Positions 44-18,321 of a stretch of DNA of 64,000 nt are shown here, one piece after another (the stretch's first letter is position 1; the number at the start of each line of letters is the position of its first letter). Made by a program: the position numbers and the translations under genes. Below the pieces are notes generated by a model. The model was not told the DNA's origin. It did no database searches and saw nothing but the letters and a program-made list of their open reading frames with translations. The stretch is taken from contig NC_059428.1 of assembly GCF_021028975.2 (NCBI RefSeq), positions 74,958,001-75,022,000 on the forward strand, written 5' to 3'. The DNA is from Sphaerodactylus townsendi. Taxonomy: Eukaryota.

Positions 44-2052
44 AGAAGACAATACCCCCCCCTCTCCTCATCAGCTGACAGCTGACAGCCTGCGTAGCAG
101 GCTGTCCTGTCCACCATCCTTCTCCCTTCTACCTCCCAGGTGTCAACCTGCATAACCCTAGAAATGCTAGCGTGTTCCCCAGCTATCTGTCATGCTATTC
201 CCTAGCTGGCAATTGTAGTGGCTGAGTGTATCTGTGTGTGTGTCATTCGCTTTGGAAGTTGGCTCTACTTGGCAAGTCCAGGGTGTTTCTGTGTAGCGTT
301 TTTAATCTGTGTTCAACAGACTGGCATCCCTCTCAGTCCCTCCCAAGAGGAGCTGTTCATGAGCGGGAGTGAAGCGCCGTTTGAAACTGCAAAAGGAGCC
401 GTCAGGCTCGCCTTCCCACCCACCCAGGTGTCAATCTGCATAACCCTAGAAATGCTAGCGTGTTCCCCCAGCTATCCGTCATGCTATTCCCTAGCTGGCA
501 ATTGTAGTGGCTGAGTGTATCTGTGTGTGTGTGTGTGTGTGATTCACTTTGGAAGTTGGCTGTACTCGGCAAGTCCAGGGGCGTTTCTCCCTAGCGTTTG
601 TAATCTGCGTTCAACATGCTGGCATCCCCCCGCCCTTCCCCAAGCCCTGCTGTGTGTGTGTGTGTGTGTGAGAAGGAGAGAGCCCCTTGCTCGTTGAAAC
701 TGCAAAAGAGCTGCTAACGGGTGGGGTGTTCCCCTCCCACTTATCAAACGCTCATCTCCCCCCCCCTCGCTCTTCTCCTCGAGGGTTCTTGGAATAAGTC
801 CTTTATGTGTGCAGCGCGCCTGTTTCCAAACGTTGTTGTAAAAACAGACCCTTTCTCCCCTCCCAAAAGCCAAGGCGTTTGAATCATGCATCTTTCCCAT
901 CTCCGGAGCGGTCTTGGAATAAGCCCCCCCCCCCTATGTTTGCAGCCTGCTTCTTTCCAAACTTTGTTGTAAAAGCATCCTCCCTCCCCAAAGCCAAAGG
1001 GTTTACCGAAAACAATTGGGAACCGCCCAGCGCGTTCCTTCCCTGCCTACGCTGAGGTTTGAATACGAAAGCCCCGCAGTCTGCATTTCAGCACTATTTC
1101 CGCAAAAGGAAGCTCACCTTTTGTTTCTAAAGTGTATTGTGAAAAGCATCCTGCCCTACGGGGGCTGCTTTCTGAAAGCAGAGGTCGTCCAGAAAATAAA
1201 AAAAAAGGAGCAGAGAGCGTTTTGCAGGGTTTTTTCCCTAAAAGGAACGTGACTTCCTGAAAGAGTCCGTCCTGTGTTTTCCCTCCTCCCCCTCAGGGCA
1301 GTATGGCCGGGGAGCTTAATAGGGACTGGACCGATCTGTGCACCCTGCATGGTGTTCCTGACAAACCAGGAAGCATGCTTTTAAGAAAATAATAAAGTGT
1401 TTTTCCAGGCAAGAGCTGGTCGTTATTCTCGTGTGCTATGCAAAGCACCGCTTGTGTAATTCTGTCCCTCCCCAGCGAAGCAGCAGCTGCAGTCGCTGCA
1501 AAGTTTTCAGATTCTTCGTGATACCGCCACCCATGCGAGTTTTACGAAGCGCAGGTACAGCATACCGGCATGTCCCTTCTAGAGTGTCGAATGAAGGCGC
1601 AGAGCTTCCTGTCACCCTTGGGCTTATAATTTAATGGCAGGCAGTCCGCCGTGGTTGGGGCTGGGGATGACGCTGCAATTTGTGATTTCACGGGTGTGCG
1701 ACCCATCAATCAACCCGGCTCGCTCGGCAGAAGCCGGCGATGTCATTTTAGGGCGGTGCGGTGCTCTTTGGGGCTCCCCTGGAGATTGGGAACGGCCGAA
1801 TTTGGCCCAAAAAAGTTGATTTCCAGGCCATACGACGTGCCAATCAACCAGGCATGATCGGCAGAAGCCCGTGCAGTCGTTTTAGGGCGATGCGGGGCTC
1901 TTTGGTCGTTATCAGCCGGCGGCCATGTCGGGCGGGTCAAGTATCAATTTTGATTCCGTGTGCTGTGTGAGACGTCAATCAACTCGGCTCGATCTAGCGA
2001 GCGATTTAAGGCCGACCAATGAGGCGCCGGACCTCGGGGGCATAAATATGGG
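44..2052 (+). repeat. Left terminal inverted repeat (~2.0 kb)
   Basis: Reverse complement of 16290-18321. Similarity stops abruptly after ...GGGGGCATAAATATGGG (2052). The outer ~950 bp are nearly identical; the inner ~1 kb is indel-rich relative to the right copy. Confidence 0.95.
1683..2052 (+). promoter_or_regulatory. Putative inward-facing promoter at the inner end of the left TIR
   Basis: Three ~134-bp tandem units each contain CAATCAAC (1707, 1841, 1976). They are followed by CRE-like GACGTCA (1971), CCAAT (2016) and TATA-like CATAAATA (2041-2048), about 66 nt upstream of AGCATG (ATG 2114). Confidence 0.6.
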
Positions 2053-2113
2053 CAAGAAGAAGGTGTGGAAGCGCTTTTTCTGCCGTTGCTGGCTAGGAGG
2101 TGTTCTTGAAAGC

Positions 2114-2919
2114 ATGCCCGCGAATGAAAATATGCAGCCTGATACAGCGGTAATCGAAGGGTCGGGTGCTGAAGAAGGAATTTATGAAGACATGCAACCC
2201 GCTGTTCCGGACCCGGGAGAGGCTGTTATTTACGAGGAAATGGCTCCGGTACGAGTACCAGACAGGCGCCAGTGCATTCACTTCTTGCTAGATCAGGCAA
2301 GTATTATAGGGGGAAATGTGTGGTTGTTTTTTTTAAAAAAAAAATTGAAGCGTTGCAGTGCGTAGGGGGGGAAAAGCCAACCTGTTCTATTTTATCTTTT
2401 GTAGCTAGGGGATAGACGTGGTGAACGTTTCACAGGTGGTGAGTTGATCGATATTCTGGATGTTGTGTACACAAAACCACTAGCTAATTGCTGTCTCGAT
2501 TGCGAGATTATTGAATCTCACCAAAATCCAAGATCAGATGAAGAATCTGATTCTGGCCGGGGTTCAGAGGAAGAAAATGGACCGATGACCCCACCGCCAA
2601 CCCCTGCATCCACGCCGGCAAGCCCTGAGGAGCAGTCTGAGGCAGAGAAGATTATCTGTGTAGAGGAGTTATTTCCTGATGTAAGTATGCAAAAGAATAA
2701 AGGTAACAGTGTGTGTTAAGCCTACAACGTGAGCTGAATGCGTGCTTATGTTTTTAAATGTAGGTATGGAACGACCCGATCGACCTGGCAGCGTTGGCAA
2801 GACAAGTTGAAGGAGAATTGAACCCGGAGTGTTGTTACCGGTGTGGAATGGTTGAGCTGTTTCAAAAAAAAAAGCAGAGTCTTGGAGACCCAAGGGGGCT
2901 GATGCAACGTCAAAATTAA
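2114..2919 (+). CDS. Predicted 3-exon viral accessory protein (exons 2114-2296, 2405-2680, 2764-2919; ~204 aa, or 226 aa from ATG 2048), acidic and rich in short linear motifs
   Basis: Donor CAG|GCAAGT (GC-AG) pairs with acceptor TATCTTTTGTAG|, and donor GAT|GTAAGT pairs with acceptor TTTTTAAATGTAG|. Both introns are phase 0 and the joined frame is open. AATAAA at 3016-3021. Motifs: IYEDM, IYEEM, DSGRGS, TPPPTP, IICVEE, CCYRC. Confidence 0.7.
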
Positions 2920-3070
2920 GAGTTGTAGAATTGTTTTGTAGAATGGAAAAGCCAAAGTGCACAGGGGATGGTAGGGGTGTGGGTCGGTGCCCTCTCTTCT
3001 GTATATAGCGACCTGAATAAAGAAAAAGTATTCATTGCTGTAAAGAAAACGGTGTGTGTGCGTGTGTACC

Positions 3071-4192
3071 ATGTCACGGTCTCAAGAGGGTATCTTGAAA
3101 GCTATTTATTTTAACCCCGGGGAAGTAGGGAGTCTTGGAGGGGTGGATGCGCTTTACAGGGCAGCGCGTAGGAAGGGGTATAAGCAAAGCAGGAATGATG
3201 TAGCAAAATGGCTGGCCGATCAAGATGCATATGCCGTGCACAAAACAGCCAGGGTGCATTTTAAAAGGAACAGGGTTATAGTTGGTGACATCGATGAACA
3301 ATGGCAGGCGGACCTAATGGACGTTCAAAAATATTCCCAATACAATGCCGGTTACAAATACATTTTAACGGTAATAGACATTCTTTCAAAATACGCGTGG
3401 GCAGTCCCGCTCAAAGATAAGACGGGCGGTGAGGTGGCGGGGGCTTTCAAAACTCTATTTGCGGAGGGGCGCCGCCCTCATAAACTGCAAACGGATGAGG
3501 GGAAAGAGTTTTTAAATAAAAAAGTAGCGGAGGTGCTGCGACAATACGGCATAGACCATTTTACCACGAGAAATGAGGTGAAGGCAGCGGTCGTGGAGCG
3601 TTTTAATCGAACCCTCCGTTCACGCATGGCACATTTTTTCACGGCCGAGAACACTTTCAAATATATTAACGTGCTGAAGCAACTCTTAAAAAGTTACAAC
3701 CACAGTTTTCACAGGACCATACAGGCCCGGCCCGCAGATGTCAACACATCCAATTCGTTAGCTGTGTGGAGGCGTGTTTATGGTTCGCAGGCTATTCAAA
3801 AGCAGCCCAGCCGTGCCTTTAAGAACGGGGACCGCGTGAGGGTGTCTAGAGCAAAAGCTAGATTCGAAAAGGGATATGAGCAGACATTCACGGATGAAAT
3901 TTTTATCATAGACGGCACAATCAATAGAGGCATCCGTCCTATGTTCCGGTTGGTTGACTTTCAGGGGGATGCCATTCTAGGGGGGTTCTACCCAGAAGAG
4001 CTCCAGAAAGTTATCAACTGGGAAGACCGTGTATACAGGATTGAGAAAGTTATAAAAAGCAAGACAGAGAAGAAAAGCAAGCTTTTGTTCGTGAAGTGGA
4101 AGGGGTGGCCGTCTAAATTTAACAGCTGGGTGGCGGCCAAAGACGTGACGGAGCTAAATGGAGGAGGAGGGGTTTTACATGCTGCTCCCTAG
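3071..4192 (+). CDS. Maverick retroviral-like (rve) DDE integrase with C-terminal chromodomain
   Basis: Catalytic motifs WQADL, LQTDEGKEF and VVERFNRTL. Chromodomain YRIEKVI...LFVKWKGWPSKFNSWV. The ORF is intact. Confidence 0.97.
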   Translation: MSRSQEGILKAIYFNPGEVGSLGGVDALYRAARRKGYKQSRNDVAKWLADQDAYAVHKTARVHFKRNRVIVGDIDEQWQADLMDVQKYSQYNAGYKYILTVIDILSKYAWAVPLKDKTGGEVAGAFKTLFAEGRRPHKLQTDEGKEFLNKKVAEVLRQYGIDHFTTRNEVKAAVVERFNRTLRSRMAHFFTAENTFKYINVLKQLLKSYNHSFHRTIQARPADVNTSNSLAVWRRVYGSQAIQKQPSRAFKNGDRVRVSRAKARFEKGYEQTFTDEIFIIDGTINRGIRPMFRLVDFQGDAILGGFYPEELQKVINWEDRVYRIEKVIKSKTEKKSKLLFVKWKGWPSKFNSWVAAKDVTELNGGGGVLHAAP

Positions 4193-4898
4193 CAACGCGT
4201 CCACGGACCTATTTCCACAAAACACATCCTCATCTTTCACCGTGCGCCTTTCTAAACCCCTGGATTTACGCGGGCAGTGGGAAGCAGGACTTGCTGAAAT
4301 CCAGTACCCGCACACCTGGTACAAAATCACCAAACCGGCAAGCTTCGCTGTTTCTGAAGGGAACAGTAAGATTGCTCTGGAGTTTAATTTAAGACCGGGA
4401 TATTATTGGACAGTGTCCGAAATAACAGACCACATGAACAGCCTTGTCAGACGCGAGGCAAACCCCCCTTTGAGCATTAGTTTTTATTATGACCCCACGC
4501 AAGCCATGCTCCGGTTTAATGGCCCAAGGGCGTACAGGGTGACGATGAGCGAAGAGTTGGCGTTAATCATGGGGGTCCCCATCAACCAGGCCGTGACGAA
4601 AGCCGGCAACTGCTGCGACATCACAGCCGGCTTTAACACGCTGTATGTCTATACAGATATCACAGAGTATCAGGTGGTGGGGGACACAACAGCGCCACTC
4701 CTGCGCTGCGTGCCGATACGGGGAAACGTTCACGACTTTGTCACGATCACGTATGACAAGCCACACTACGTTCCTATAAATAGGCAGCACATAGAGACAG
4801 TCACCATAGAAGTAAAGAGCGACCAGGACCGCCTTGTACCGTTTAAATACGGGAAGCTTCTGGTGCGGTTGCATCTCAGACCCCGGAAGAGATGGTGA
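4158..4898 (+). CDS. Minor capsid protein (penton)
   Basis: Polinton penton signatures FYMLLPSNAS..FPQNTSSSFTVRL, WEAGLAEIQYP, LYVYTDI, VGDTTAPLLR and LHLRP. Intact and located after the integrase. Confidence 0.9.
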   Translation: MEEEGFYMLLPSNASTDLFPQNTSSSFTVRLSKPLDLRGQWEAGLAEIQYPHTWYKITKPASFAVSEGNSKIALEFNLRPGYYWTVSEITDHMNSLVRREANPPLSISFYYDPTQAMLRFNGPRAYRVTMSEELALIMGVPINQAVTKAGNCCDITAGFNTLYVYTDITEYQVVGDTTAPLLRCVPIRGNVHDFVTITYDKPHYVPINRQHIETVTIEVKSDQDRLVPFKYGKLLVRLHLRPRKRW

Positions 4899-5404
4899 CC
4901 GTGAAAGAGCACGGGAATTCCGCCATGTTTATGAGATATTATCAATCGCAGGCGGGTAGAGGGCTCCCCGGGTTTCGCGGTGCCCCTGTTATGTATGGGA
5001 AAGGTATAGGTGGTATTTTTAGCAGGTTTCTCCGCATGGCTGTGCCGCTTTTTAAAAAAGGAATTGCGATCGCCAAGCCGCATTTGAAAAAAGCAGCCCG
5101 AAACATAGCGCAAGACATGGTTTCTCACGTAACACGGAGCGTTATGAACAAGTATCCCGCACAAGAAGGGTCCGGTCTTCTCTACCTGAAAAGAAGGGGC
5201 GGGGTTAAAAGAAAGCATGCATGGTCCCATCAAGGACCCCCCAGGGCAGTAAAAAGGATCAGCCGCGGCTCTGGGAAACAGAGAGGCAAGCGCCGGTCTA
5301 GAGTCAAAGGTCGGAAGGAGAAGAAGAAGAAGAAGAAGAAGAAGAAGAAGAAGAAGAAGAAGAAGAAGAAGAAGAAGCTGTGTGCTCTCAAAGACGTGTT
5401 CTAA
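4892..5404 (+). CDS. Basic core-like protein (pVII/pVI-like precursor) with poly-Lys tail
   Basis: YYQSQAGRG...MYGKGIGGIFSRFLRMAVPLF is typical of the small Polinton ORF upstream of MCP. It has protease-site-like GxG motifs, an amphipathic helix and an Arg/Lys-rich C-terminus. Confidence 0.8.
   Translation: MVTVKEHGNSAMFMRYYQSQAGRGLPGFRGAPVMYGKGIGGIFSRFLRMAVPLFKKGIAIAKPHLKKAARNIAQDMVSHVTRSVMNKYPAQEGSGLLYLKRRGGVKRKHAWSHQGPPRAVKRISRGSGKQRGKRRSRVKGRKEKKKKKKKKKKKKKKKKKKKLCALKDVF
5321..5377 (+). repeat. (AAG)19 microsatellite encoding poly-Lys
   Basis: Perfect AAG run in frame within the core-protein ORF. Confidence 0.95.
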
Positions 5405-5411
5405 AATAATC

Positions 5412-6722
5412 ATGGCGTTTGTTCATTGTAACTCAGAAGAATGTACCAAATCAGAACTGGACCTGTTTCAAATTGCCCCCACGCAGACAAGCTTGGAGAA
5501 AAGTTTGTATATCGAAGTGCCGCCCCTCTCAGCCCTTTCTGATTTGGCACCTCTAGAATTTTTTATCCCAGGAAACGGTGAAGATTATCTAGACCTGAAT
5601 GATACGCTATTACACATCACCTGCAAGATTGTCAGGGCCGACGGGACAGCCATCCCCAACGACACCAGGGTGACGTTGGCAAACTATCCGATCGCGACAA
5701 TGTTCAGCCAGCTAGATGTCACGCTGGGGGACACCTTGGTCAGCCAGAGCAATAACTGCTACCCTTACAGAGCTTTAATAGAATTGCTTTTGAATTACAG
5801 CGGGGAAACCCTAGCCACCAGATTTTCTACAGGTGCCTTTTTTAAGGATACAGCCAGACATCACGAATCAACAGTTCTGGACGGTCCAAATCAAGGTTTT
5901 GCAAAGAGGGCTGCGCTGACTAACGGGAGTAGGAAAGTGGAGCTGCTGGGGCACCTCCACACGGATCTGTTTTTTCAACCCCGACTTATGATAAACGGGG
6001 TCGATCTGAAAATTAAATTGACACGTGCCAAAGATGCATTCTGCCTTTTAACCAACGACGCAGCCGCCGGTTTCAAGGTACAGATTTTGACGGCCTCTCT
6101 CTTTGTGAAGAGGGTGAAGGTGGCACCGGGGATCAGGTTGGCCCACGCGGAAGCTATGCGAACCACCACTGCCAAATACCCAGTGGACAGAGTGAGCATG
6201 AAGGTATTCAGCATAGCGGCAGGCACGCGTGTGAGCAACGTGGACAATTTATTTCTGGGGCAGCTCCCCAAGCAGCTGGTCTTGGCTCTCGTGGACAATG
6301 ATTCTTTTAGCGGGGAATACACCAAAAACCCCTTCAACTTTAAGCACTACAACGTTAATTTTGTCGCTTTGTACGTCGACGGGGAACAAACACCGTTGAA
6401 GCCACTTCAGCCTGACTACGAAGTGGGAACCCACGCCAGGGAGTATATGAGTTTGCTTCAATCGGCCGGGAAGCATTTGGAGGACAGGCCCTTCCTGACG
6501 AACTGTGAAGAGTTTGGACGGGGGTACGCGCTGTACGGTTTCAACCTGACACCGGATCAAGAGTGTGGGGACCATTACTCTCTGATCAAAACAGGGAACC
6601 TGAGGGCTGAAATCCGCTTTGCCTTTCCGTTGCCCGATACCGTCAACTTGGTTGTGTACGCGGCGTTTGATTCCGTGATAGAAATCAACCAAAACCGCAA
6701 CGTGCTGTTTGACCACGCGTAA
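5412..6722 (+). CDS. Major capsid protein (double jelly-roll, hexon-like)
   Basis: MAFVHCNSEECTKSELDLF start, LHTDLFFQPRLMINGVDLKIKL, NPFNFKHY, GYALYGFNLTPD and GNLRAEIRF. Intact 436 aa. Confidence 0.95.
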   Translation: MAFVHCNSEECTKSELDLFQIAPTQTSLEKSLYIEVPPLSALSDLAPLEFFIPGNGEDYLDLNDTLLHITCKIVRADGTAIPNDTRVTLANYPIATMFSQLDVTLGDTLVSQSNNCYPYRALIELLLNYSGETLATRFSTGAFFKDTARHHESTVLDGPNQGFAKRAALTNGSRKVELLGHLHTDLFFQPRLMINGVDLKIKLTRAKDAFCLLTNDAAAGFKVQILTASLFVKRVKVAPGIRLAHAEAMRTTTAKYPVDRVSMKVFSIAAGTRVSNVDNLFLGQLPKQLVLALVDNDSFSGEYTKNPFNFKHYNVNFVALYVDGEQTPLKPLQPDYEVGTHAREYMSLLQSAGKHLEDRPFLTNCEEFGRGYALYGFNLTPDQECGDHYSLIKTGNLRAEIRFAFPLPDTVNLVVYAAFDSVIEINQNRNVLFDHA

Positions 6723-6723
6723 A

Positions 6724-7251
6724 ATGGACACATGGCAGATAAGGCGTGCGTTGCTAAACAACCCCACGACCAGGAAAAGTTTCTTGGGAGTTTTCGCCAG
6801 CGATATGTTACCCTCTAAAAAGCTGGCCCAGAGGCCTGTTTGTCTGGTGGTGAATACCGACCCTCAAAACCTCCCCGGCGAGCACTGGCTGGCTATTTAC
6901 CTCCCCGATCATGAGCGCGCAGAGTTTTTTGACTCTTACGGAAACCCACCACACAGCTTACTCTACCCACAATCCCTGTTGGCTTTTTAAAAGAAAAACT
7001 CCAAGGAGATCTATTTTCATCAGAAGAAACTCCAGGGGCCCGCATCGACCACGTGCGGGCATCACTGCCTATTTTTCCTGCATCAGAGGTGTAAGGGCCG
7101 GTCGTTTGACACAGTTGTGAAGATGTATTCCGTTGACCCCACGCAGAATGACAGGATGGTCAGGACTTTTGTGAACAAAATCGGAAGGGGGGCGAACGGT
7201 TTACAGGCCCAATTAAGACCTGTACAAGCCTGTGTTTCTTGTGGACCCTAA
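6724..7251 (+). pseudogene. Adenain-like cysteine maturation protease with one in-frame stop (TAA 6988-6990)
   Basis: GEHW and FFDSYG lie before the stop. The same frame continues ...LQGPASTTCGHHCLFF to TAA 7249-7251, so the catalytic Cys lies after the stop. The lesion is probably TTA>TAA. Confidence 0.9.
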
Positions 7252-7349
7252 TAAAAAAAAACCTTTTAAAAAAATAGCATGGGTGAAGGTCTCATTTGTA
7301 AATCAAGACACGGGGACACGGTACCAATTTTTAAAAAATTAATTTTATT
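7250..7349. terminator. Convergent polyadenylation signals between the two gene modules
   Basis: AATAAA on + at 7250-7255 overlaps the protease stop. AATAAA on - at 7349-7344 overlaps the stop of the 7345-8103 ORF. Confidence 0.65.
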
Positions 7350-8103
7350 CTTCCGTTAACCACTTTCCGAGAGCTAGCCCCTGTTTCTTTTTAGAAGAGG
7401 GCAAAAGAGAGTGCATTTTCTGTTTCTTGGAAGACAGGGTGGGAGTTCTCTTTGCAGAGGGTGACAAAAAAGAGGTTTTCAAATCTTCTAGCCGTTTTCT
7501 AGTCGCTACGCTGCCAGCTACAGATGAGGGTGTGTTTAGTTCAGCCAACGCGCCGATGAACACCTCATAGCCTTTAGGGAGGCGTGCAGAAGCCGGGGCG
7601 TGTGGTTGCGTCACGGTTCTGATGAGGTCCAATATATGGGACCCGGGTACGGGCTTTCCTTTGTAAAGGAATGTCCCCTTTTCATCCCAGCTGGCGATGT
7701 GCTTGTTATCACCCATCATCTTGAACAGCACGCGTGCATTGGCTTTGTATCTCGGAGAGAGGCTTTCTACCACATCTTCCAAAACGTGGTCGGTTGGGAC
7801 TGCTAGAGGGGCCTGTGCGGCATCGAGGTGCGGTGGTGGAGCTGTTTGGGGGAAATGCAGATCTAGGCGGGCTGTTTCTTGTTCGGCCTTTCTCACGTGC
7901 GTTAGATATTTCTGAAGGTGTGCGTTATACAGCCGCGCTTTCTCATAATCTGGAAGATCTGTCCTCTGTAGTATGGCCCCCATCTCCTCATCTAGAGTAC
8001 GCACAGTGGTGCTTCGTATGTTTTCGTCACGCAGGCCCATCTGGCGATTTAGCTGCTCCAGCTGACGGCTGGGGACCAGGTACATCTTCTCAGCGTGCTC
8101 CAT
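7345..8103 (-). CDS. Conserved Maverick protein of unknown function (PW/PZ-type)
   Basis: MEHAEKMYLVP, LDEEMGAIL...EKARLY...LQKYL, WDEKG...GSHILDLI and P.G...F..AL.ELN.P are motifs typical of Polinton accessory core genes. Basic C-terminus; intact. Confidence 0.8.
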   Translation of the reverse strand: MEHAEKMYLVPSRQLEQLNRQMGLRDENIRSTTVRTLDEEMGAILQRTDLPDYEKARLYNAHLQKYLTHVRKAEQETARLDLHFPQTAPPPHLDAAQAPLAVPTDHVLEDVVESLSPRYKANARVLFKMMGDNKHIASWDEKGTFLYKGKPVPGSHILDLIRTVTQPHAPASARLPKGYEVFIGALAELNTPSSVAGSVATRKRLEDLKTSFLSPSAKRTPTLSSKKQKMHSLLPSSKKKQGLALGKWLTEE

Positions 8104-8435
8104 TAGAAAGTTGGGCCTTTAACAATCTGGTTAACAGCGGGAGTGTAATGCCCAAGAGACCCCCTATAAACCCACCGCTCTGCTTGACCAGCCGCTGCTT
8201 CTTCTTAATGGGTGTTTTGGCTGCTCAAGGCCTTAATAACGCCCCGCTTTTTTCTCAGAAAGGCCTTCTGGCGATGTGTGAGGGGAATATTTCCCTTCAG
8301 AGCATTTAAGCAAATCTCGCTTAAAGCAAGAACCAGGTCACGCGGCGGGGCTGCAAAAATAGTTTTGCGCAGTTCGGGTGAACACCTAGACAAGAGTTTC
8401 AAGAGAGCACCATTTCTCTTTAAGCATGCTGACAT
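8090..8435 (-). pseudogene. pX-like small virion protein, frameshifted near 8218
   Basis: MSACLKRN...EICLNALKGNIPL... continues in another frame as KTPIKKKQRLVKQSGGFIGGLLGITLPLLTRLL...*. The QxGG|F hydrophobic tail resembles the adenovirus pX C-terminus. Confidence 0.75.
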
Positions 8436-8502
8436 GGTGCAGCTGCTGCTGCTGCTGTTGCTGCTGCTAGGGGCGACAGTAAAAGCTCAGGAAAAGGCCT
8501 GG

Positions 8503-9174
8503 TCAGGCCCTTTTAACAGCCCCAGCTGATTTCTTTAGAATGTAAGCAGCAGGGATGTCTGGGGGAAACAGACCGGTCCTCAACCTGTAAGATTCGGGGG
8601 TGTTGGTGTTTAAATCCACCACTAGGTAGCCGTAGGGCTTGCTCACGGCGTCTTCGTAGACCTCCAGAAAGAATTTACTTTTTCCTGGGTACATTTGGCG
8701 GGCCAGGATGGCTATCTGCAACCGGTCTCTGGGGTTTTTAAATAAAACTAGATATTTGGCATTCAAATGAATAGACCTGCTGCTTTTCCCCTGGCAGAAT
8801 AAGTTCTGCACTATAAAAATAATACTGAGATTCCTGTGATGGGAATACTTGGTGAAGGCATTTTCAATTTCGCCGTTGGTAGAAGCAGAATTCATCAAGT
8901 CATCCACAATGATCAGGTTTCTTTTATTAGGCGGTAACAAAGCATCATCGTTCAAAGAGGGGGGGATGCCCTCTACAAACTGTATAAAGGGGAAACGCGC
9001 GTACAATTCTTTATACAGAGGCTGGAAACAGGAGTAACACCACACAATATTTTCAGGCATTTGAGACAACGTCCCCTCAGCGTGCACAAGCAGATTCTTA
9101 ATAAAGTAACTCTTTCCACAATTGCTGGGCCCTGCAATAATGGCAGAGAACGGGTGCTGCCAACGCGTGTCCAT
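8503..9174 (-). CDS. A32/FtsK-like genome packaging ATPase
   Basis: Walker A GPSNCGKS, Walker B LIIVDD, FTKYSHHRN, VQNLF and KPYGYLVVD. Intact. Confidence 0.95.
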   Translation of the reverse strand: MDTRWQHPFSAIIAGPSNCGKSYFIKNLLVHAEGTLSQMPENIVWCYSCFQPLYKELYARFPFIQFVEGIPPSLNDDALLPPNKRNLIIVDDLMNSASTNGEIENAFTKYSHHRNLSIIFIVQNLFCQGKSSRSIHLNAKYLVLFKNPRDRLQIAILARQMYPGKSKFFLEVYEDAVSKPYGYLVVDLNTNTPESYRLRTGLFPPDIPAAYILKKSAGAVKRA

Positions 9175-9176
9175 CC

Positions 9177-12100
9177 TCAATATCCGTAAGGCAGACTTCG
9201 AAAATTGTCCTTCAGTACACGCTTATCATAAACCACCTTCTGTGTCTTTTTAAGAACCTGGGTTTTAATAGAAAAACTCTGTTTATGTCTGACAATCCCT
9301 GGGTGCTCCACCACTATTGATGCCTGGTTTTCCCCACCCACGTGCGTAAAGACTAATTCTTTCAGGCTGTCAAAATTAATTTTTTGGCTGTTGGCATAGT
9401 TCAGAGTGATCCCCTTCACTTTCAGGCATGCCCCCCCACCCGACAGCTTGTACCCATATGACTTGGGCCCTGTTGAGACAAATTCTGTGATATGCTGACC
9501 CTCTGGTATTTCGCTGGTCAGCTCCCCTAAATAATCACCAAGACGAGGCTTCCAATCGTCTTCTTTGCTCCTAAATATAACAGAATCAGTGTCATAGTAT
9601 AAGCACCTCTCGCCCAGTTTGTTTAACAGCTTGTACAATTCTAATCGGCCGTAAGCTGTGGTAAAGCATGCTATGTACACGTTGGTGTTCCCAGAGGCGG
9701 CCAGGGTTGGTTTAGAGAGCCTCCATGACACACAGACCGCATCATCACTGACAAAATCACACCAAGTGGGTTCATACTTATCTGAAAAAACCAGCTCAAA
9801 ATACCTGTTTGGATCTCTGACAATCTCAGTTCTTGGCAAGTTGGACCTCTGTGCAAATTTACCCCACAGAGAATTAAGAAACAGTTTAGCAACCTGCCTC
9901 TTTGCAGGGTTTGGCTTGATATGCGTGGGCCGCAGGGCAACCTCCTCCTTTGTATAAAAATCTTCTACATACTTTTTATCTGCCTCGCTGACTGCCCACG
10001 ATGGGTAGCCCGACGCTTCTTGCTTATTTCTCAGATGGCACTTAATGTGTTCTGAAAACAAGTCTGTGGATTGCTCCTCAAAATGCCACACTTCAAAGAT
10101 CTCCCCCACTCTATACCCCTGTTCTATGGCCACAGCGATCTCACAAGTGCACCACGTGCCTATCAATGCCCTTTCTTCGTCGTTGTGAGTGCAGGGTACC
10201 TGGAGTTTTTGGGCCGCACAGGTCCTGCACAATGTGAAATAGAGCTTGCCATCGGTCTTGCTAGGTAGTACCGGGAAAAACAGACCTCTGGGGGGGTACA
10301 CTTTCACCTTAACCAATCCAAAATATTCTGTCAAGGGCCTGAAATTCTCATAAATGATCACCGGGTGGCCTTTTGGGTAAACTTTGTTAGCATTTACAAA
10401 GGGATACAAGCTGCAATAATCCACGTATGCAACTTGTTCATTTTTTTCAGTTTTGTGGTATAGTGTCACAGCATTGGTCCGCCCCCCAAAGAGAGCGTCT
10501 CTGGGTTTTAATGGCTCTGGGAAACGGGCCTCTTTCAGGAAAGCTTTTACACGTTCATCTGTGGCTTTTAGATTTTCCCACTCATGTTCCCATATTTCTA
10601 TGACTCGAAACCCCTTTTTTTTCAATTCATCAGACCTCTGGCGGGTAGCAGAGTTTAACTCTGCGTATGTTCTGTTGCTCACTCTGGAAAACGCCTGGGG
10701 GTCTGTGCAGAGGGCACAGCCATGCCATTCACATCCTAAGAATTCGTACCCTATCTTCTCGCCATTTTGCACCGCGGTGAATCAGCTATTCAGAAAATAT
10801 TTCCTCGCTTTAAAATTTCACCCTTTGAGAGCTGCGGTTCGATTTGAATGTTTTCTGAGTGTTCGATGTAACTCAGCCATTGAATAGAGGCTGTGGAAAA
10901 CCTTTTTACCTGCTTGTGATAGTGGTCTGCAGGTGGGATGGCTATAGACTGCGGCCGTAGGAAATTAAGCCTATACATGGCTAGACACACGCTGGCCAAG
11001 GTTGTGTACTGCAAGGGGTCTATAGAGAGATTGTCCTCCCTAGTGGTCATGTTAATGATTTCCTGTCTGTACAGAATGCAGGCTTTTTCTAGAATTTCCA
11101 CATCTTTTTGACAATAATAAGCCAACTCTCTTTGAAGGTCAAAGGTCGCTCTTTTGTTTTGTTCATACCACACCATGAAATCAGACCTCTCTTTCTCCTT
11201 CATGTAATTTACCGTAAAATTTGCATGGGAGTGCCCTTCCAGGTAATTTTGATTAGCACGTGTATTAAACAGATGGGGGAAGAACCCTTTGCACCCCTCG
11301 AAGCCCAGGGCCCCGGGTAATTTTGCTAAAGTGAGGGGTAGGTGTTCAGAGAATCAATGAATTTTATACCGTGTGACTTAATGGTTACGCACATAAGCTT
11401 CCCCCCAACAGTCAACAGCTGTGGATCTAGCCTCTCTTCAATCAGCCGACGGACCAAGAAATAGCAATCATAAGATTTTGAATTATGGGCGATAAAAGTA
11501 CAATCCCTAAACTTCTTCTTCTGCAATGTGATGGTGGCAATAAAATCTTCTACACATTTTTCACCTTTGAACACCCAAGAACACCCTCTTATTTTCCATT
11601 CGACGTCCCCTGACCCCTCCCAGGCCTTTGCATATAGATAACAGGGCCTGTGAAGCCAGTCATCCGTTTCCTCTTGGGTGCTTTCTATGTCATAAAAGAT
11701 ATATCTTTCAGAACTTAGGGGGCTTTCAAGCGGCTGAATATAGCACAGTTCATGTGCGGTTTCGTGCTGCTCAAGTCGTCCCCCACACTGTCTACAAACT
11801 CTCCCCTTACATTTTATAAACTGGTGCTGCATCTTTTGGTAAGATTTGCAATCGGCACACCACTTTCGAGAAATGCATGCCGTGTCATCATTTTCCACAC
11901 GTTCCCCGTGCTTCCTGAAGCAATACTCGCTGCTACAGACCATTAAACAATTTTGGCATTGTACGGACTCCCCCTGGATAGTTTTACACTCTGTAGTTGC
12001 ACAAATTCTACAAAAGTTGGCGCAAGTGGTTATCGTACAGCGTTTGACAGTAGGGGCATAGATTTTTAGCACCCACAAGCCCCCCGCACATTCAAAACGC

Positions 12101-13330
12101 CATAATAGTGTTCCTGATGCAACAGGAGAGTATGTGTCTTTGGAAAACGTGGTGGATTGGCTGTTTTAAAGATGTCCCAACCTTTTGTGGGCATGCAAAG
12201 AACAACATGTATGTTCACATTCAAATGTTCTTCAACAATGGACACATCGGACAGGGTCACAGCCTTCTGAGTAGACCACCCGAGCTGCGTATGGAGCTGC
12301 TTAGCCGCCTCTAACAATTCGGAATCTGTAAAATCCCATCCCTCTGCCCTTTTGATCACCCCCATCAAGCAACCCGCAAAACATAGGTTTTCACCCTCGC
12401 TATTCAAATCGATCAAATATCTACGTTTTTTGTCAATGATTGCGCTGTAAGGGATGGATTTAAGGTTCCTTCGTGCACCACCCCTGGGGGGGCTTGTAAT
12501 GGTTGCTATAAGCCTCAGTGTGTCAGAGTTCAAAATTTCTCTATTGCTCTGAAGCGTGCTTGCCACAAAATCTAAAAACTCTGACGCGTTAATGTTGCTT
12601 TTGCATTTCTTAAAGGAATAAACAGGGTTTTGCTCCCCCCCTCACTTCTTCCAATCTAGAACTGAACAAAATCCCCCTCCTGAATCCTCCCACATATTTC
12701 ATCCACAATGCTTTGCACACCTCTTGTAAGAGCCTCTATTGCAGCTGAAAAAGATGTCACCCTATCTAGATTAACAAAACGGAATTCTTCGCTAACCACC
12801 AGTGACCTGAATCTTTGGTATGGTCTTTCCCAAGATCTCACCCTCTCCACGTGTACTTCAGGCTGCTCTGGTGAAGCGTTAATATCACAGCCCTCTTCAC
12901 CCTCCATCCCACTGTCTCCGCCCCCCCGCTTCAGACCCCGTGGGGGTTGACAAAATTGACTCCCCGTCACCCTGTAAACCACAGCCTGTCTGCGTGACAG
13001 GCATTGCGCAGTCCATATACATAGCAGGAGTTTTATTATTCTGGACATCAGCCACAAGCTTGTAAAATTGGTTGCATATAACCTCGTGTGCTGCCTGCTT
13101 TTGCGCAGCCCACTTACATGCCTCATCAGCTTCTTTTTTGGAAGCTTGTTTTTTAATCAATACGTCAAGAAGTTCATCACCCAGGCGGTCCATTTGTTCT
13201 CTGTCTTCTCTCCGTTTATCTTTGCCCCCTTCTGCACCCTTCGACTTCTTGGCTGCCACCTGTTTTTGGGTTGGGGTGTCAGTCGGTGAACGCTTAGACT
13301 TTGAAAGGGCCTTTCTATTTGGGGCCTGGT
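9177..13330 (-). pseudogene. Protein-primed family B DNA polymerase (terminal-protein region, OTU-like domain, Zn-binding region, exonuclease, inserted Vsr-like nuclease, polymerase), broken by at least 6 frameshifts
   Basis: Motifs LQSN, ENLCF...EHYY, YIFYDIES (Exo I), AHNSKSYD (Exo II), KGFFPHLFN, YCQKDVEIL (Exo III), YEFLGCEWHG, DYCSLYP, KLFLNSLWGKF and YYDTDS. They are spread over the ORF fragments 12897-13259, 12656-13126, 12066-12566, 11326-12078, 10790-11203 and 9177-10772. Confidence 0.95.
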
Positions 13331-13434
13331 CTGCAATAAAACAAAGAAAAAAGACCGATTAAAAAATCAAGTGTAGTCCGCCACAGCTCTCTTCTTCCCA
13401 TGTTAAAATAACCAGCTCTGGACATCTTGAAACA

Positions 13435-13488
<54 letters not shown>

Positions 13489-13664
13489 AAGAAAAACAAG
13501 ACAGGCTGGGAGATAAGTGGCAAATTGGGGAGCTGGATCTGTAGCACGTGGGATCCATGTGACATTATTGTCATTTTATGAGATTATTCCTTTTCCACCA
13601 TACAGACTCCACATCACAGCTTACAAAATCTAAGACAGAACACACAGTTACTAAAGCAGCCTCC

Positions 13665-14560
13665 CTCCTCCCCCCATAGAAAAAAGACAGTATGTTTAAC
13701 AAAGCATATTTCTGAATTTCTGCACAATGAACACTCATTTTTTTAATCCCTTTGACACTCACTGGATTTTTTTTTGGGCAGAGCATTGGTGGGTGGCGAC
13801 GGCCCTGGAGATTGAAGAACTCCTGCTGAGATATTCAGAGAAGGCACCGGGGCACCTGTGCTTGATGCCCGTTGATTATACGGCATCAGATCAGCATTTG
13901 TAACAGCTAATCCACTTCCTGAAAACAGACATTAAAATTATGCATAGTATATAGCCATGTTTCCTCTTCTGACAGCCCGTCCCTTCCGTGGCTCATGGAA
14001 CTTTTCTACACACAAGGGTATGTAGAGGCCCTCTCAAGCATATTTTTCATGCAGCTTTTTAGCCTTAAAAGCATGACAATTATTATCTCCCTCCCTCCAC
14101 CCACCACCCCCCCATAGAAAAAAGATAGTATGTTTAACAAAGCATATTAACTTCTGCACAATGCACACTCATTTTTTAATCCCTATGACACTCACTGGAA
14201 TTTGGCAGCAGACTATGGATGGGTGGCAACGGCACTGGAGATGGAAGAACTCCTGCTGACGCTGCAGAGATGTTCAGAGCTGGCACCGGGGCACCTGTGG
14301 CCGATGGCCATTGATTATACATGTTTAGACCACTAGTTGTAGCAGGGTGACCATTTCCTGAAAACAGACATTTAAATTATGCATAGCATACAGCCATGTT
14401 TTCTCTTCTGATGTCCCCCTCACCCCCCCCCCCACTTCTGTGGCTCATGGAACTTTTCCACACACAAGCGTATGTAGAGGACCTCTCAAGCATATTTTTC
14501 ATGCAGCTTTTTACCCTTAAAAAGCATGACAATTCTTATCCCCCTCCACTCACCCCCCCC
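13665..14560. repeat. Tandem duplication of a ~440-bp exon+intron unit inside the Maverick
   Basis: CCCCATAGAAAAAAGA..TATGTTTAACAAAGCATATT recurs at ~13670 and ~14110. CCTGAAAACAGACATT recurs at ~13918 and ~14357. Confidence 0.9.
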
Positions 14561-15038
14561 ATTCTGTTATGTTCTATGTACCCCTGTTTTACACGTGACC
14601 CACCCATTTCTTCAGTCTGTGGGGGAAAATATGGATCTATCTGGGTTTGCGCAGGGATAAAGGTTTGATCGCCGGTCTCTTTTAATATGGCATCTGTGAT
14701 ATAAAAACCAGGCAGGCCTGTTAATAAAATTCTGTTTTTTGCAGGATCTTACCACCCTCTAAAACCCATATATAAAATTACCTAGCGGATCCTCATAATG
14801 GCCAGCAGGGTTCACTGCTGCGTCATAATTATACCCATTCACAAATTTTTTAAGAAGATTTATGGGAGCTGCTTCGGTTCCTGTATTTTGGGGAATATTT
14901 CAGAAGACACACACTTCTTATTATCCGGGCCATTGCTTTCTTAAAAATACCCCCCACACACACACACCCCACACACCCCAAACCACTACAGGTCTTACCT
15001 TCGGCAGCTTGGAGCATTTCCGCATCAGTAGCATCCAT
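13763..15038 (-). CDS. Predicted spliced 5' exons of the pPolB unit: 15038-14999, 14880-14782, 14693-14604, 14357-14196, 13918-13763, joining the acceptor at 13330
   Basis: All introns are GT-AG and phase 1. Internal exons are 99, 90, 162 and 156 nt, all multiples of 3 and stop-free. The joined frame matches the 12897..13259 ORF. Confidence 0.65.
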
Positions 15039-15354
15039 TTTATTTTATTTTTTAATGAATTTTTTAAGGCTGCTTCACTCAGAAGACCCTCTAAGCCACG
15101 GGAGCACGTGTGACTGTCTTGGGGCCAGTGGGTCTAACAGTTATATTTTTCAAGTAAGGGGGTGGGCCTGTGCCTTATCTGGGTTTACCAACTGCCCATC
15201 TGTGAGCAACTGCGTGTTGTGTGGGGCCTCCTGGCTGTGGTCATCTCCTAATCAGATAAGCATTAAAACACCACCCCTCCCAAGAAACAGAAAAACTTTT
15301 AAAGAGTTTCAATAAATGTTTTATTGAATATAATTCTGCATATTTGGTTTTATT

Positions 15355-16237
15355 TTACTTGGAAAAGAATACATTCAAAGTACGACTACCAACATTCAAC
15401 GCCAGATATTTTTTTACAAGAACCACAAAATCCTGGTTACATTTGTCAGAGAATTTCTGCAAGCATTCTGTAGGACAGCTAGCCGACTCCACATTTTTCA
15501 CAAATTTGGCCAGAGTGACAAAATGGCTGTTGTTCAGTGACAAACACCCAGTACACAATCCAAGATGCGTGATTACTTGAATAATTGGTTCTAAACAGAC
15601 ATTGTGACACACAGACCTCAACCGTTCATCAAAATCACATTGTATACAATCGTGGCTGTTCAAATCCTTGCAATTATTCTGGCAGGCGGTGCACATGGCA
15701 TGGCATAAATCATTCAGACACCATTTCATAATTACAGAAAGGGTTGCTCTTGAGAGTTGCCCAATAGCAGATCTTCTTTTTGAGGGTTCCACACTTGGTA
15801 TATCAGCCACCCTGAGTTTTGCGTTGCACCTCATGACTTCGGCCATGGACTTTCTGTCCCTGAGAGAATCGGCCATGCTGAAAAGGGTGAAGTTCTGCAA
15901 AAAAACAAAAATAGCATTTTAAAACCCCTCTGCAACACTATACAGCATCTCCCCCAGTGCCCCAACCTGTCCTGATCCATCTCACCTCCATCTTGACATG
16001 CTTATTCTGTTCAACACCATCTTCTGTTGAAACACAGGCATCACGGGTCTGCTTCTGGTCGGTTGGTCCAGCATCACCCTCAGACCCCGGAAACAGCTTT
16101 TTGGCACATTTCTTGAAAAAAATGTCCTCGTCGCTATCATCAGCATCCATAGCCGCACGCTGCCTCTTCAAACGCCTCCCTCTGGTCGGGGCAGGGGGTG
16201 GAGAAAGTGAAAAAAGGCTCCCTGCGGGGGTTTCCAT
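15355..16237 (-). CDS. Predicted 2-exon viral accessory protein (16237-15986, 15894-15355; ~263 aa) with NLS, KKLF motif and Cys/His-rich domain
   Basis: Donor GAG|GTGAGA and acceptor TTTTTTTTGCAG|AAC, phase 0, join ORFs 15938..16237 and 15355..15900. AATAAA lies immediately after the stop. Contains CTAC...HDC. Confidence 0.75.
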
Positions 16238-16289
16238 GCTCAGCTATGAAACAGGTTTGGTTTCGCAGCTGTCTCCAAGGCCCAGAATA

Positions 16290-16660
16290 CCCATATTTAT
16301 GCCCCCGAGGTCCGGCGCCTCATTGGTCGGCCTTAAATCGCTCGCTAGATCGAGCCGAGTTGATTGACGTCTCACACGGCACACGGAATCAAAAATTGAT
16401 ACCCCGACTACCGGACATGGTCACCGGCTGATAATCACCAAAGAGCCCCTGCATCGCTCTAAAACGACTAACGGGCTTCTGCCGCATCATGCCTGGTTGA
16501 TTGGCACGCTGTGATGGCCCGAAATCACCTTTTGGGCCAAATTTCGCCGCTCCTAATCTCCAGGGGAACCAGCACTGCACCGCCTTAAAATGACATCGCC
16601 GGGCTTCTGCCGCAGCTTGTGCCGGGTTGATTGATGGGTCGCGACGCCTGCGAAATCACA
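16290..16660 (-). promoter_or_regulatory. Putative inward-facing promoter at the inner end of the right TIR
   Basis: Mirror copy of the left cassette. TATA-like CATAAATA at 16301-16294 lies about 57 nt upstream of AGCATG (ATG 16237). Confidence 0.6.
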
Positions 16661-18321
16661 AATTGCAGCGTCATCCCCAGCTCCCAACCACGGGCGACCT
16701 GCCTCGCTGCCATTAAATTATAAGCTCAAGGGTGACAGACAGCTCTGCTGCCTTCATTCGAAAGACTTCTAGGAAGGGACATGCCCGGCATGCCTTTTCA
16801 ACCACGCCTGGCCCGCCTCCATGGGTGGCGTGTATAATGTAAGTTCGAAAACTTTGCAGCTTAATTTCGCCGCCGAGCGCCAGGGTGAGGAGAGGGGACA
16901 GAGTACACAACGGTGCTTTGCATAGCAGCCACGAGAGCCAACGACTCCGCCTTTGCCTGGAAAAACACTTTATTATTTTAAAAGCATGCTTCCTGGTCGG
17001 TTGTCAGGAACACCATGCAGGGTACGGCAATAGACGTCCAGTCCTCGACAAGCTCCCCGGCCCTACTGCCCTGAGGGGAGGAGGGAAAACACAGGAAGGA
17101 CTCTTTCAGGAAGTCATTACTGTTTTAGGGAAACCCTGCAAAACGCCTTCGCTCCTTTTTTTTTTTTTTTTTCTGGACGCATCCTCTGCTTTCAGAAAGC
17201 AGCCCCGTGAGGGCAGGGATGCTTTTCAATACACTGTAGGGACAAGAGGGGAGCGTCCTCTTGCATAAATTGTGCTAAAATGCAGCCTGCCGGGCTTTAT
17301 GTGATTCAAACCTCGCTACCAGAGACGGGGAAGGGCATCGCCGGGGTCGGTTCACCAATTGTTTTCGTAAACCTTGGGGTTTGGGGAGGGGGGATGCTTT
17401 TACAACGAAGTTTGGAAAGAAGCAGGCTGCAAACATAGGCTTATCTCCAGACCGCTCCGGAGATGGGAAAGATGCATGATTCAAACGCCTTGGCTTTTGG
17501 GAGGGGAGAAAGGGTCTGTTTTTACAACAACGTTTGGAAACAGGCGCGCTGCACACATAAAGGACTTATTCCAAGAACCCTCCGGAGAAGGAGGGGGCGG
17601 GGGTGGGGGGAGATGAGCGTTTGATAAGTGGGAGGGGAACACCCCACCCGTTAGCAGCTCTTTTGCAGTTTCAACGAGCAAGGGGCTCTCTCTCTCACAC
17701 ACACACACCCACACACAGCAGGGCTTGGGGAAGGGCGGGGGGATGCCAGCATGTTGAACGCAGATTACAAACGCTAGGGAGAAACGCCCCTGGACTTGCC
17801 GAGTACAGCCAACTTCCAAAGTGAATGACACACACACACACACAGATACACTCAGCCACTACAATTGCCAGCTAGGGAATAGCATGACGGATAGCTGGGG
17901 GAACACGCTAGCATTTCTAGGGTTATGCAGATTGACACCTGGGTGGGTGGGAAGGCGAGCCTGACGGCTCCTTTTGCAGTTTCAAACGGCACTTCACTCC
18001 CGCTCATGAACAGCTCCTCTTGGGAGGGACTGAGAGGGATGCCAGTCTGTTGAACACAGATTAAAAACGCTACACAGAAACGCCCTGGACTTGCCAAGTA
18101 GAGCCAACTTCCAAAGCGAATGACACACACACAGATACACTCAGCCACTACAATTGCCAGCTAGGGAATAGCATGACGGATAGCTGGGGAACACGCTAGC
18201 ATTTCTAGGGTTATGCAGATTGACACCTGGGAGGTAGAAGGGAGAAGGATGGTGGACAGGACAGCCTGCTACGCAGGCTGTCAGCTGTCAGATGATGAGG
18301 AGAGGGGGGGTATTGTCTTCT
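16290..18321 (-). repeat. Right terminal inverted repeat (~2.0 kb)
   Basis: Begins CCCATATTTATGCCCCCGAGG at 16290, the reverse complement of the left TIR inner end. The mirrored ORFs 218..514/17852..18148 confirm the inversion. Confidence 0.95.

Follow-up and report, generated by a model that had tools for sequence, protein, structure and literature searches.

A predicted leader of spliced phase-1 mini-exons upstream of the protein-primed polymerase in a reptile Maverick/Polinton

The exon chain upstream of the polymerase gene

The DNA analyzed here, hereafter the window, is a stretch of 64,000 nucleotides (nt) from Sphaerodactylus townsendi (RefSeq assembly GCF_021028975.2, contig NC_059428.1, positions 74,958,001 to 75,022,000). 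The window locus is a vertebrate Maverick/Polinton of 18,278 bp with long terminal inverted repeats (TIRs) and a gene for a protein-primed DNA polymerase of the PolB family (pPolB) on the minus strand. A sequence-only reading of the window had proposed that five small exons upstream of this gene splice a disordered leader of about 180 amino acids (aa) onto the polymerase. The exons proved correct in number, coordinates and length (Table 1), as did the introns that separate them (118, 88, 246, 277 and 432 nt; GT-AG in 5/5 and phase 1 in 5/5) and the description of the internal exons as stop-free multiples of three (4/4). The ATG of exon 1 stands in a strong context, with A at -3 and G at +4, which is true of all three subfamilies of related elements described below. 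The chain joins the acceptor TTTGTTTTATTGCAG directly ahead of 13330, the strongest acceptor of the region, which heads a large terminal exon.

Splice sites were ranked with approximate vertebrate splice matrices; on this scale the donors of exons 1-5 hold ranks 1, 4, 12, 7 and 6 among 135 GT dinucleotides, and the acceptors of the five introns hold ranks 19, 4, 5, 2 and 1 among 114 AG dinucleotides. Exons 4 and 5 lie within a tandem duplication that includes their introns (340 of 385 aligned nt identical), and because they are tandem duplicates they are not independent of each other. The 5' parts of these two exons (window 14357-13763) appear exchanged between the window and a second copy of the element, C9, as if the tandem units had recombined or undergone conversion. 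The leader had also been described as rich in Pro, Ser and Ala, which is accurate for exons 4-5 only (43-45%), exons 1-3 having 21-31%; judged from its composition, the spliced leader of about 180 aa is probably disordered.

The chain was also recovered blindly. A dynamic programming search for the best chain from an ATG to the acceptor, with any internal phase allowed, gave precisely the five proposed exons with a score of 25.4, a value reached by none of 50 equal-length slices of host DNA (top score 17.8) and by none of 100 dinucleotide shuffles (top score 19.4), of which none yielded five exons all in phase 1. Leaving the end phase free did not displace the five-exon chain from the top score, and forcing the end into phase 0 or phase 2 lowered the score to 22.9 and 7.7, respectively. 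The chain was stable in four of six settings that permit a phase-1 end, a stricter cut-off losing exon 2 and a laxer one adding a doubtful sixth exon, with the caveat that the score cut-off was chosen after the site scores were already known. The sixth candidate (13505-13413), found only at the lax cut-off, spans a GT repeat and has a 103-nt insertion in C9, and was rejected. The view that five consecutive frame-compatible exons are improbable by chance was thus borne out, with the qualification that exons 4 and 5 do not count as independent.

Table 1. Predicted leader exons and other features of the Maverick/Polinton in the window
Feature	Position	Strand	Description
Leader exon 1	14999..15038	-	40 nt; ATG, 13 codons + 1 nt; best-ranked donor AAG/GTAAGA
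Leader exon 2	14782..14880	-	99 nt, phase 1-1, weak acceptor
Leader exon 3	14604..14693	-	90 nt, phase 1-1, weak donor
Leader exon 4	14196..14357	-	162 nt, phase 1-1, Pro/Ser/Ala-rich; first unit of the intron+exon tandem duplication
Leader exon 5	13763..13918	-	156 nt (165 nt in C9), phase 1-1; second duplication unit
Start of large terminal exon	12897..13330	-	Basic stretch, predicted long helix, N-N-K-x4-Y-x-D-C
Q-x-G-x-G-L motif (QTGCGL)	12975..12992	-	Candidate cleavage site of an adenain-like protease
TP, vOTU and polymerase parts of pPolB	9177..12850	-	Several broken open reading frame pieces
Candidate promoter region	15040..15330	-	GATA site, CCCACCC, TATA-like AATATAA; motif matches only
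Upstream gene, two exons	15355..16237	-	Exon 16237-15986 (252 nt), phase-0 GT-AG intron, exon 15894-15355
Maverick/Polinton element	44..18321	no strand	TIRs, AGAAGA...TCTTCT ends, TTGGGG 6-bp target-site duplication on both sides

Related copies, gene models and other features of the element

Genome searches gave one further copy of the same subfamily (subfamily A: window and C9) and more distant elements, assigned to subfamily B (C590, C1529, C1101 and C3d) and subfamily C (C6). Blastn of the window leader against C590 and C1529 of subfamily B and against C6 of subfamily C gave no match. The plan of the leader, in which a short ATG exon is followed by mini-exons in phase 1 and by a phase-1 acceptor that leads into pPolB, is common to the three subfamilies: C1101 has exons of 31 (ATG exon), 120, 78 and 54 nt and C6 has exons of 55 (ATG exon), 126, 72, 72 and 54 nt, all in phase 1, and the internal exons are stop-free multiples of three in C9 (4/4), C1101 (3/3) and C6 (4/4) as in the window. 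Two further C6 exons from the chain search (4506-4550 and 5090-5176), which lie in repeated intron DNA, were omitted from these counts. The last leader intron holds a minisatellite of variable copy number in subfamily B (L006 66-550; L008 about 8330-9490; L032 4930-5176) and a (GT)n run in subfamily A.

A pyrimidine-rich AG acceptor heads the segment that precedes the terminal protein (TP) domain in all eight copies that retain this pre-TP segment (in C3c the phase was assigned by eye). These eight are the window and 7 of 18 genome regions; the other 11 regions have no pre-TP match, among them C1101, which keeps the leader on a contig that ends ahead of the acceptor. Read in phase 1 from the acceptor, the frame extends to the TP motif VERxR in C590, C3d and C1529 (three of five copies tested) and fails to reach TP in C9, C6 and the window, all of which are broken earlier, and it is continuous from acceptor to TP in the full-length pPolB models of Paroedura, Anolis and Hemicordylus. 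The proposed join into the polymerase frame is supported by the recurrence of the plan; in the window copy itself the phase-1 frame after 13330 stops at 12897, before the TP domain.

The start of the terminal exon encodes a basic stretch that resembles a nuclear localization signal, followed by a helix that AlphaFold placed in copy C590 at residues 41-100 (per-residue confidence, pLDDT, about 76-90 in the helix and below 50 on both sides; overall template-modeling score, pTM, 0.28). The pattern N-N-K-x4-Y-x-D-C-x5-Q-x-G-x-G is invariant in six aligned segments of subfamilies A, B and C, and its Y, Q and G are invariant in 9/9 aligned sequences including those of Paroedura, Hemicordylus and Anolis. 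A profile of three pre-TP segments ranked the Paroedura region first, though weakly (E 0.04-0.2). The first in-frame ATG after the window acceptor (codon 46) is CTG in C9. Further searches gave no atlas match, no fold match at E 0.001 and no viral-contig relative, and the open reading frames (ORFs) of the leader region gave no Pfam match.

NCBI gene models already include such leaders, without comment; their junction phases were inferred from protein differences. The model XP_048343231.1, which matches copy C3d, has phase-1 joins from the ATG exon to exon 2 and from there to the pPolB acceptor, leaves out exons 3 and 4 of the subfamily-B plan, and leaves the pPolB frame ahead of TP. At two loci of Hemicordylus, a 19-aa block of the leader is missing from isoforms X3, and isoform X2 shows a 2-aa difference with a D-to-N change, which implies a phase-1 junction at a shifted phase-1 donor. 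The idea of a multi-exon phase-1 leader gains from the plan seen in three subfamilies and from XP_048343231.1, limited by the duplicate nature of exons 4 and 5; in-frame skipping has indirect support in the C3d model and in Hemicordylus X3. Leader-only short isoforms are modeled in Anolis, Chrysemys, Hemicordylus and Thamnophis (P0118, P0124, P0151 and P0154), and may be real short products or fragments from broken copies. Of three Paroedura EPHB1 isoform models (P0002, P0113 and P0114), two pass in frame from host receptor sequence to the Maverick leader, entering it at two different points, and the third starts inside the element; these joins may mean that a Maverick within an intron has trapped host exons, or they may be an artifact of the gene models.

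Between C9 and the window, the splice dinucleotides are kept in 10/10 cases, the exons differ by a single indel, of 9 nt, against seven intron indels of which five are not multiples of three, and in exon 1 all three substitutions are synonymous. For the pairs window/C9 and C1101/C3d pooled, there are 2 indels in 830 exon columns versus 21 in 1622 intron columns (p 0.006), and frame-breaking indels in three pairs, two of which share C1101, number 4 in exons versus 32 in introns (p 0.003).

The remainder of the element is recognizable in part. Its integrase has rve and chromo domains (Pfam; 3044-4189), the packaging ATPase position (8506-9222) gives Pox_A32 and Adeno_IVa2 matches, both below cut-offs, the Peptidase_C5 protease is matched in copy C590 (E 2.7e-6) with an equivalent motif at window 6853, and the ORFs at the expected positions of the major and minor capsid proteins, labeled by position, have no Pfam or PDB sequence match. 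The protein-primed PolB family PF03175 was found as two pieces (E 5e-23 and 4e-11) of a gene that is broken in the window copy and split over at least six ORF pieces; its C-terminal piece is 60% identical to PolB of the Terrapene box turtle adintovirus, and its closest relatives are lizard sequences. A Pfam RAP match (E 5e-6; 9180-10781, minus strand) lies at the start of the last pPolB piece, and we take it to be, probably, the endonuclease-like insert of these polymerases. Ahead of PF03175, vOTU-like motifs occur in a region without a Pfam match (NLCFAG at 12389 and HYYG at 12110). The TP and vOTU labels were assigned by position and motif, following 10.1101/2024.03.18.585575. The TIR arms 56-538 and 17828-18310 are 99% identical, and additional pairs are present. 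The AGAAGA//TCTTCT end motif (window 44-49 and 18316-18321) occurs in both subfamily-A copies, and the flanking duplication of C9 is a 5-bp rather than a 6-bp match.

The gene upstream of the leader is Cys-rich, has no Pfam match, and is located where 'Oncoid' genes are reported. In subfamily A as well as subfamily B it is spliced, with a single phase-0 intron (L009 1918-1060; L021), its second exon showing 29% identity between the two (E 9e-23); the subfamily-B homologue is XP_048339109.1, whose intron is the one predicted in C1529. At this position copy C7 carries a gene of different appearance that has a donor site. The candidate promoter region lies between the AATAAA signals of the upstream gene and exon 1. 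Within it, a GATA site followed by CCCACCC (window about 15180-15145, minus strand) stands 115-165 nt ahead of exon 1 both in subfamily A and in subfamily B (C3d and C1101), two subfamilies whose DNA otherwise cannot be aligned, and is not found in C6; the motifs are short and may recur by chance.

Proposed mechanism and competing explanations

We regard it as very probable that the chain is a real multi-exon gene structure, with a spliced leader that includes the internal exons. For the full mechanism, in which pPolB would carry a spliced and probably disordered leader of about 180 aa that the element's own protease cuts off, our confidence is moderate. Transcription would begin in the region upstream of 15038, and the host spliceosome would join the ATG exon, the small phase-1 exons and the phase-1 acceptor into one mRNA. 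Exon 1 would provide the start codon, a role assigned to it because its ATG context is strong and because the first ATG of the terminal exon is not kept in C9. The resulting precursor would comprise, in order, the leader, the basic stretch, the helix, Q-x-G-x-G, an acidic linker, TP, vOTU and the polymerase, and cleavage would remove an N-terminal portion of about 300 aa, freeing TP-pPolB. Q-x-G-x-G at the end of the leader is a likely cleavage site for the element's protease because two further instances of the motif lie in the putative core-protein ORF. There it takes the form Q-x-G-x-G-[LI] (window about 4949 and 5162, plus strand) and is conserved in C590 and C6.

The array may have arisen from an ancestral gene with one phase-1 intron, inside which mini-exons would have been gained or duplicated one by one; phase 1 would be uniform because only phase 1-1 exons preserve the frame at every added step. 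Growth in one phase-1 intron would yield exon symmetry, varying exon number and tolerance of skipping without regulated splicing, and it is probably this growth, rather than regulated skipping, that the symmetry reflects. What splicing must supply is probably the start codon and the basic/helix segment, the internal exons being weakly constrained.

Several results weigh against this account. In subfamily A, substitutions are more frequent in exons (73/547, 13%) than in introns (76/933, 8%), which agrees in part with one of the conditions that the sequence-only reading had named as refuting it, and dN/dS in three pairs is 0.68 (subfamily A), 0.47 and 0.84 (p 0.07, 0.12 and 0.39), none significantly below 1. 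The C1101/C1529 pair shows no indel deficit (4 exon versus 16 intron indels, p 0.29). Frame preservation among copies, anticipated by the sequence-only reading and visible in the lower number of exon indels, is interrupted in two of the three subfamily-B copies compared: exon 4 of C3d carries a 2-nt frame-breaking indel, and exon 2 of C1529 has lost its acceptor and holds four indels. The exon-2 acceptor (19/114) and exon-3 donor (12/135) of the window are weak, and its frame is broken between about 12.95 and 12.90 kb, which makes an unbroken pPolB impossible as assembled. The exon-2 sites of XP_048343231.1, still in phase 1, lie 6 nt and 18 nt from the predicted ones. The pPolB records of turtles and adintoviruses begin near TP without a comparable leader; no database protein containing the terminal-exon start of the window's subfamily was found, the 143-aa terminal-exon start of the window has no relatives among proteins of 252-2000 aa, and a profile search with the terminal-exon start gave three matches, two from subfamily B and one repeat-rich and spurious. 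As to the cleavage step, the adenain consensus given in 10.1101/341131, (MIL)XGXG, is without Q. Finally, no spliced read or contig was found in four sequencing runs, examined as contigs and DNA-like in appearance; their four joints, none at a predicted intron, are DNA rearrangements or repeat effects, and the loss of an exon unit as the source of one that skips 430 nt (13804-14235) was rejected, since a C9-type exon 5 explains it.

An unlikely alternative, though the strongest of those considered, is that the leader is a selected, alternatively spliced module whose released piece or leader-only isoforms act on nuclear proteins of the host, for instance by way of SUMO-interacting motifs (SIMs) on cassette exons. 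The block skipped in Hemicordylus takes out an IVDLT core, DDIVVISE occurs at a comparable junction in Paroedura, mini-exons of subfamilies B and C start with aliphatic runs, leader-only short models exist in four taxa, and the leader exons resist indels. However, SIM-like patterns, scored with a regular expression, are not enriched in 12 leaders with a placeable end (6 versus 7.3 expected) or after adding three proteins scanned whole (22 versus 24.3 expected), with zero in the five exons of the window and one in C9 exon 2; the leader-only models may derive from broken copies; and leader dN/dS is not significantly low. It was cores such as IVDLT and VVISE that had raised the idea of a SUMO-binding role. 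A bolder version, which we find slightly more doubtful still, is that the 'non-coding' DNA upstream of pPolB in reptile Mavericks encodes a ninth core product, a spliced, exon-shuffling nuclear effector released by the protease, whose cassette exons would add or remove host-binding motifs, with SUMO-binding ones as candidates; were it true, the exon array would serve as a rapidly evolving module for interaction with the host, with acceptors that would capture host exons as well.

It is improbable that a separate small gene is made up of the upstream exons together with the first 120 codons of the large exon, with TP-pPolB translated from an internal start or from another mRNA. Such a gene would fit the frame breaks ahead of TP in both subfamily-A copies and C6, the exit of XP_048343231.1 from the pPolB frame before TP, and the several vertebrate pPolB records that begin just ahead of TP. 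Yet the frame from acceptor to TP is continuous in all three subfamily-B copies with an acceptor as well as in the Paroedura, Anolis and Hemicordylus models, the broken copies are also broken at many other places, and in the stretch from acceptor to TP the sequencing-run contigs show short indels relative to the window. Slightly less likely still is the use of exon 1 and the terminal acceptor alone, with the internal exons as cryptic sites within one long intron; the weak exon-2 acceptor and exon-3 donor would agree with this, as would the absence of exons 3 and 4 from the C3d model and the limited space in copy C7, which would hold no more than one or two upstream exons, but the stop-free multiples of three across copies, the indel deficit and the blind recovery of the chain argue against it. 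That the chain is a chance product of searching for frame-compatible GT-AG sites is very improbable, since, short splice signals, two duplicate exons and a home-made scoring scheme notwithstanding, no shuffle or host slice reaches its score and three subfamilies and independent gene models agree.

If pPolB is indeed preceded by a spliced leader, many elements may be annotated with the wrong pPolB start, and some of what is called the 'accessory region' may encode protein. Junction-spanning reads would reveal transcribed Mavericks, unaffected by DNA contamination, and the strong phase-1 acceptors may serve as exon traps, as two of the Paroedura EPHB1 models suggest. The significance is tempered by the broken state of the window copy and by a leader function that is only proposed.

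Comparison with known systems

Symmetric phase 1-1 exon duplication, in tandem intron+exon units of one phase class, occurs in the host genes of animals. Host-gene duplications of this kind encode folded domains, whereas the leader units are low-complexity peptides without a Pfam or atlas match.

Statements on the papers cited below refer to the parts of their text available to us. Intact vertebrate Mavericks/Polintons are described there as having eight intronless ORFs and no introns (PMC8097293). With these elements and with Alpha-type adintoviruses (PMC8502044) the window element shares TIRs, a 6-bp duplication and two convergent modules, and it has genes for integrase, a putative packaging ATPase, protease and PF03175 pPolB with OTU-like motifs as they do; it differs in that pPolB and the upstream accessory gene have predicted introns of spliceosomal type, and its AGAAGA end motif is outside the three given in PMC8097293. 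In the available text of PMC8502044, 'Oncoid' genes are placed upstream of PolB and 'splic' does not occur; likewise that of 10.1101/2024.03.18.585575, which defines TP and vOTU in pPolB, contains neither 'intron' nor 'splic'. A literature search made mostly by titles and the starts of abstracts, with Repbase, supplements and subscription papers outside its scope, found no report of a spliced Maverick pPolB. A spliced core pPolB departs from the published intronless description of Mavericks.

Nematode Mavericks have intronless core genes, the polymerase included, and introns only in cargo (10.1101/2022.07.12.499685), so that they share with the present element the ability of Mavericks to carry and transmit spliced genes. 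There, the spliced genes are captured host genes, whereas here it is a core replication gene that would be spliced.

Splicing would link polymerase expression to host nuclear RNA polymerase II and the spliceosome, as in adenoviruses, in which the terminal-protein precursor (pTP) is processed by adenain. Adenovirus pTP and Pol are spliced, both of them also in THEV, and pTP of human adenovirus 37 (HAdV-37) is encoded by 13495-13503 joined to 8325-10223 (PMC2397415, PMC11304566). The likeness to adenovirus E2B that had been drawn for the window is loose: a short upstream coding exon gives the start for the terminal-protein precursor in both, but the adenovirus has one coding exon of 9 nt, as in HAdV-37, whereas the Maverick leader has four to five exons and about 100-180 aa. 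TP and polymerase, which are separate proteins in adenoviruses, are fused in these Mavericks.

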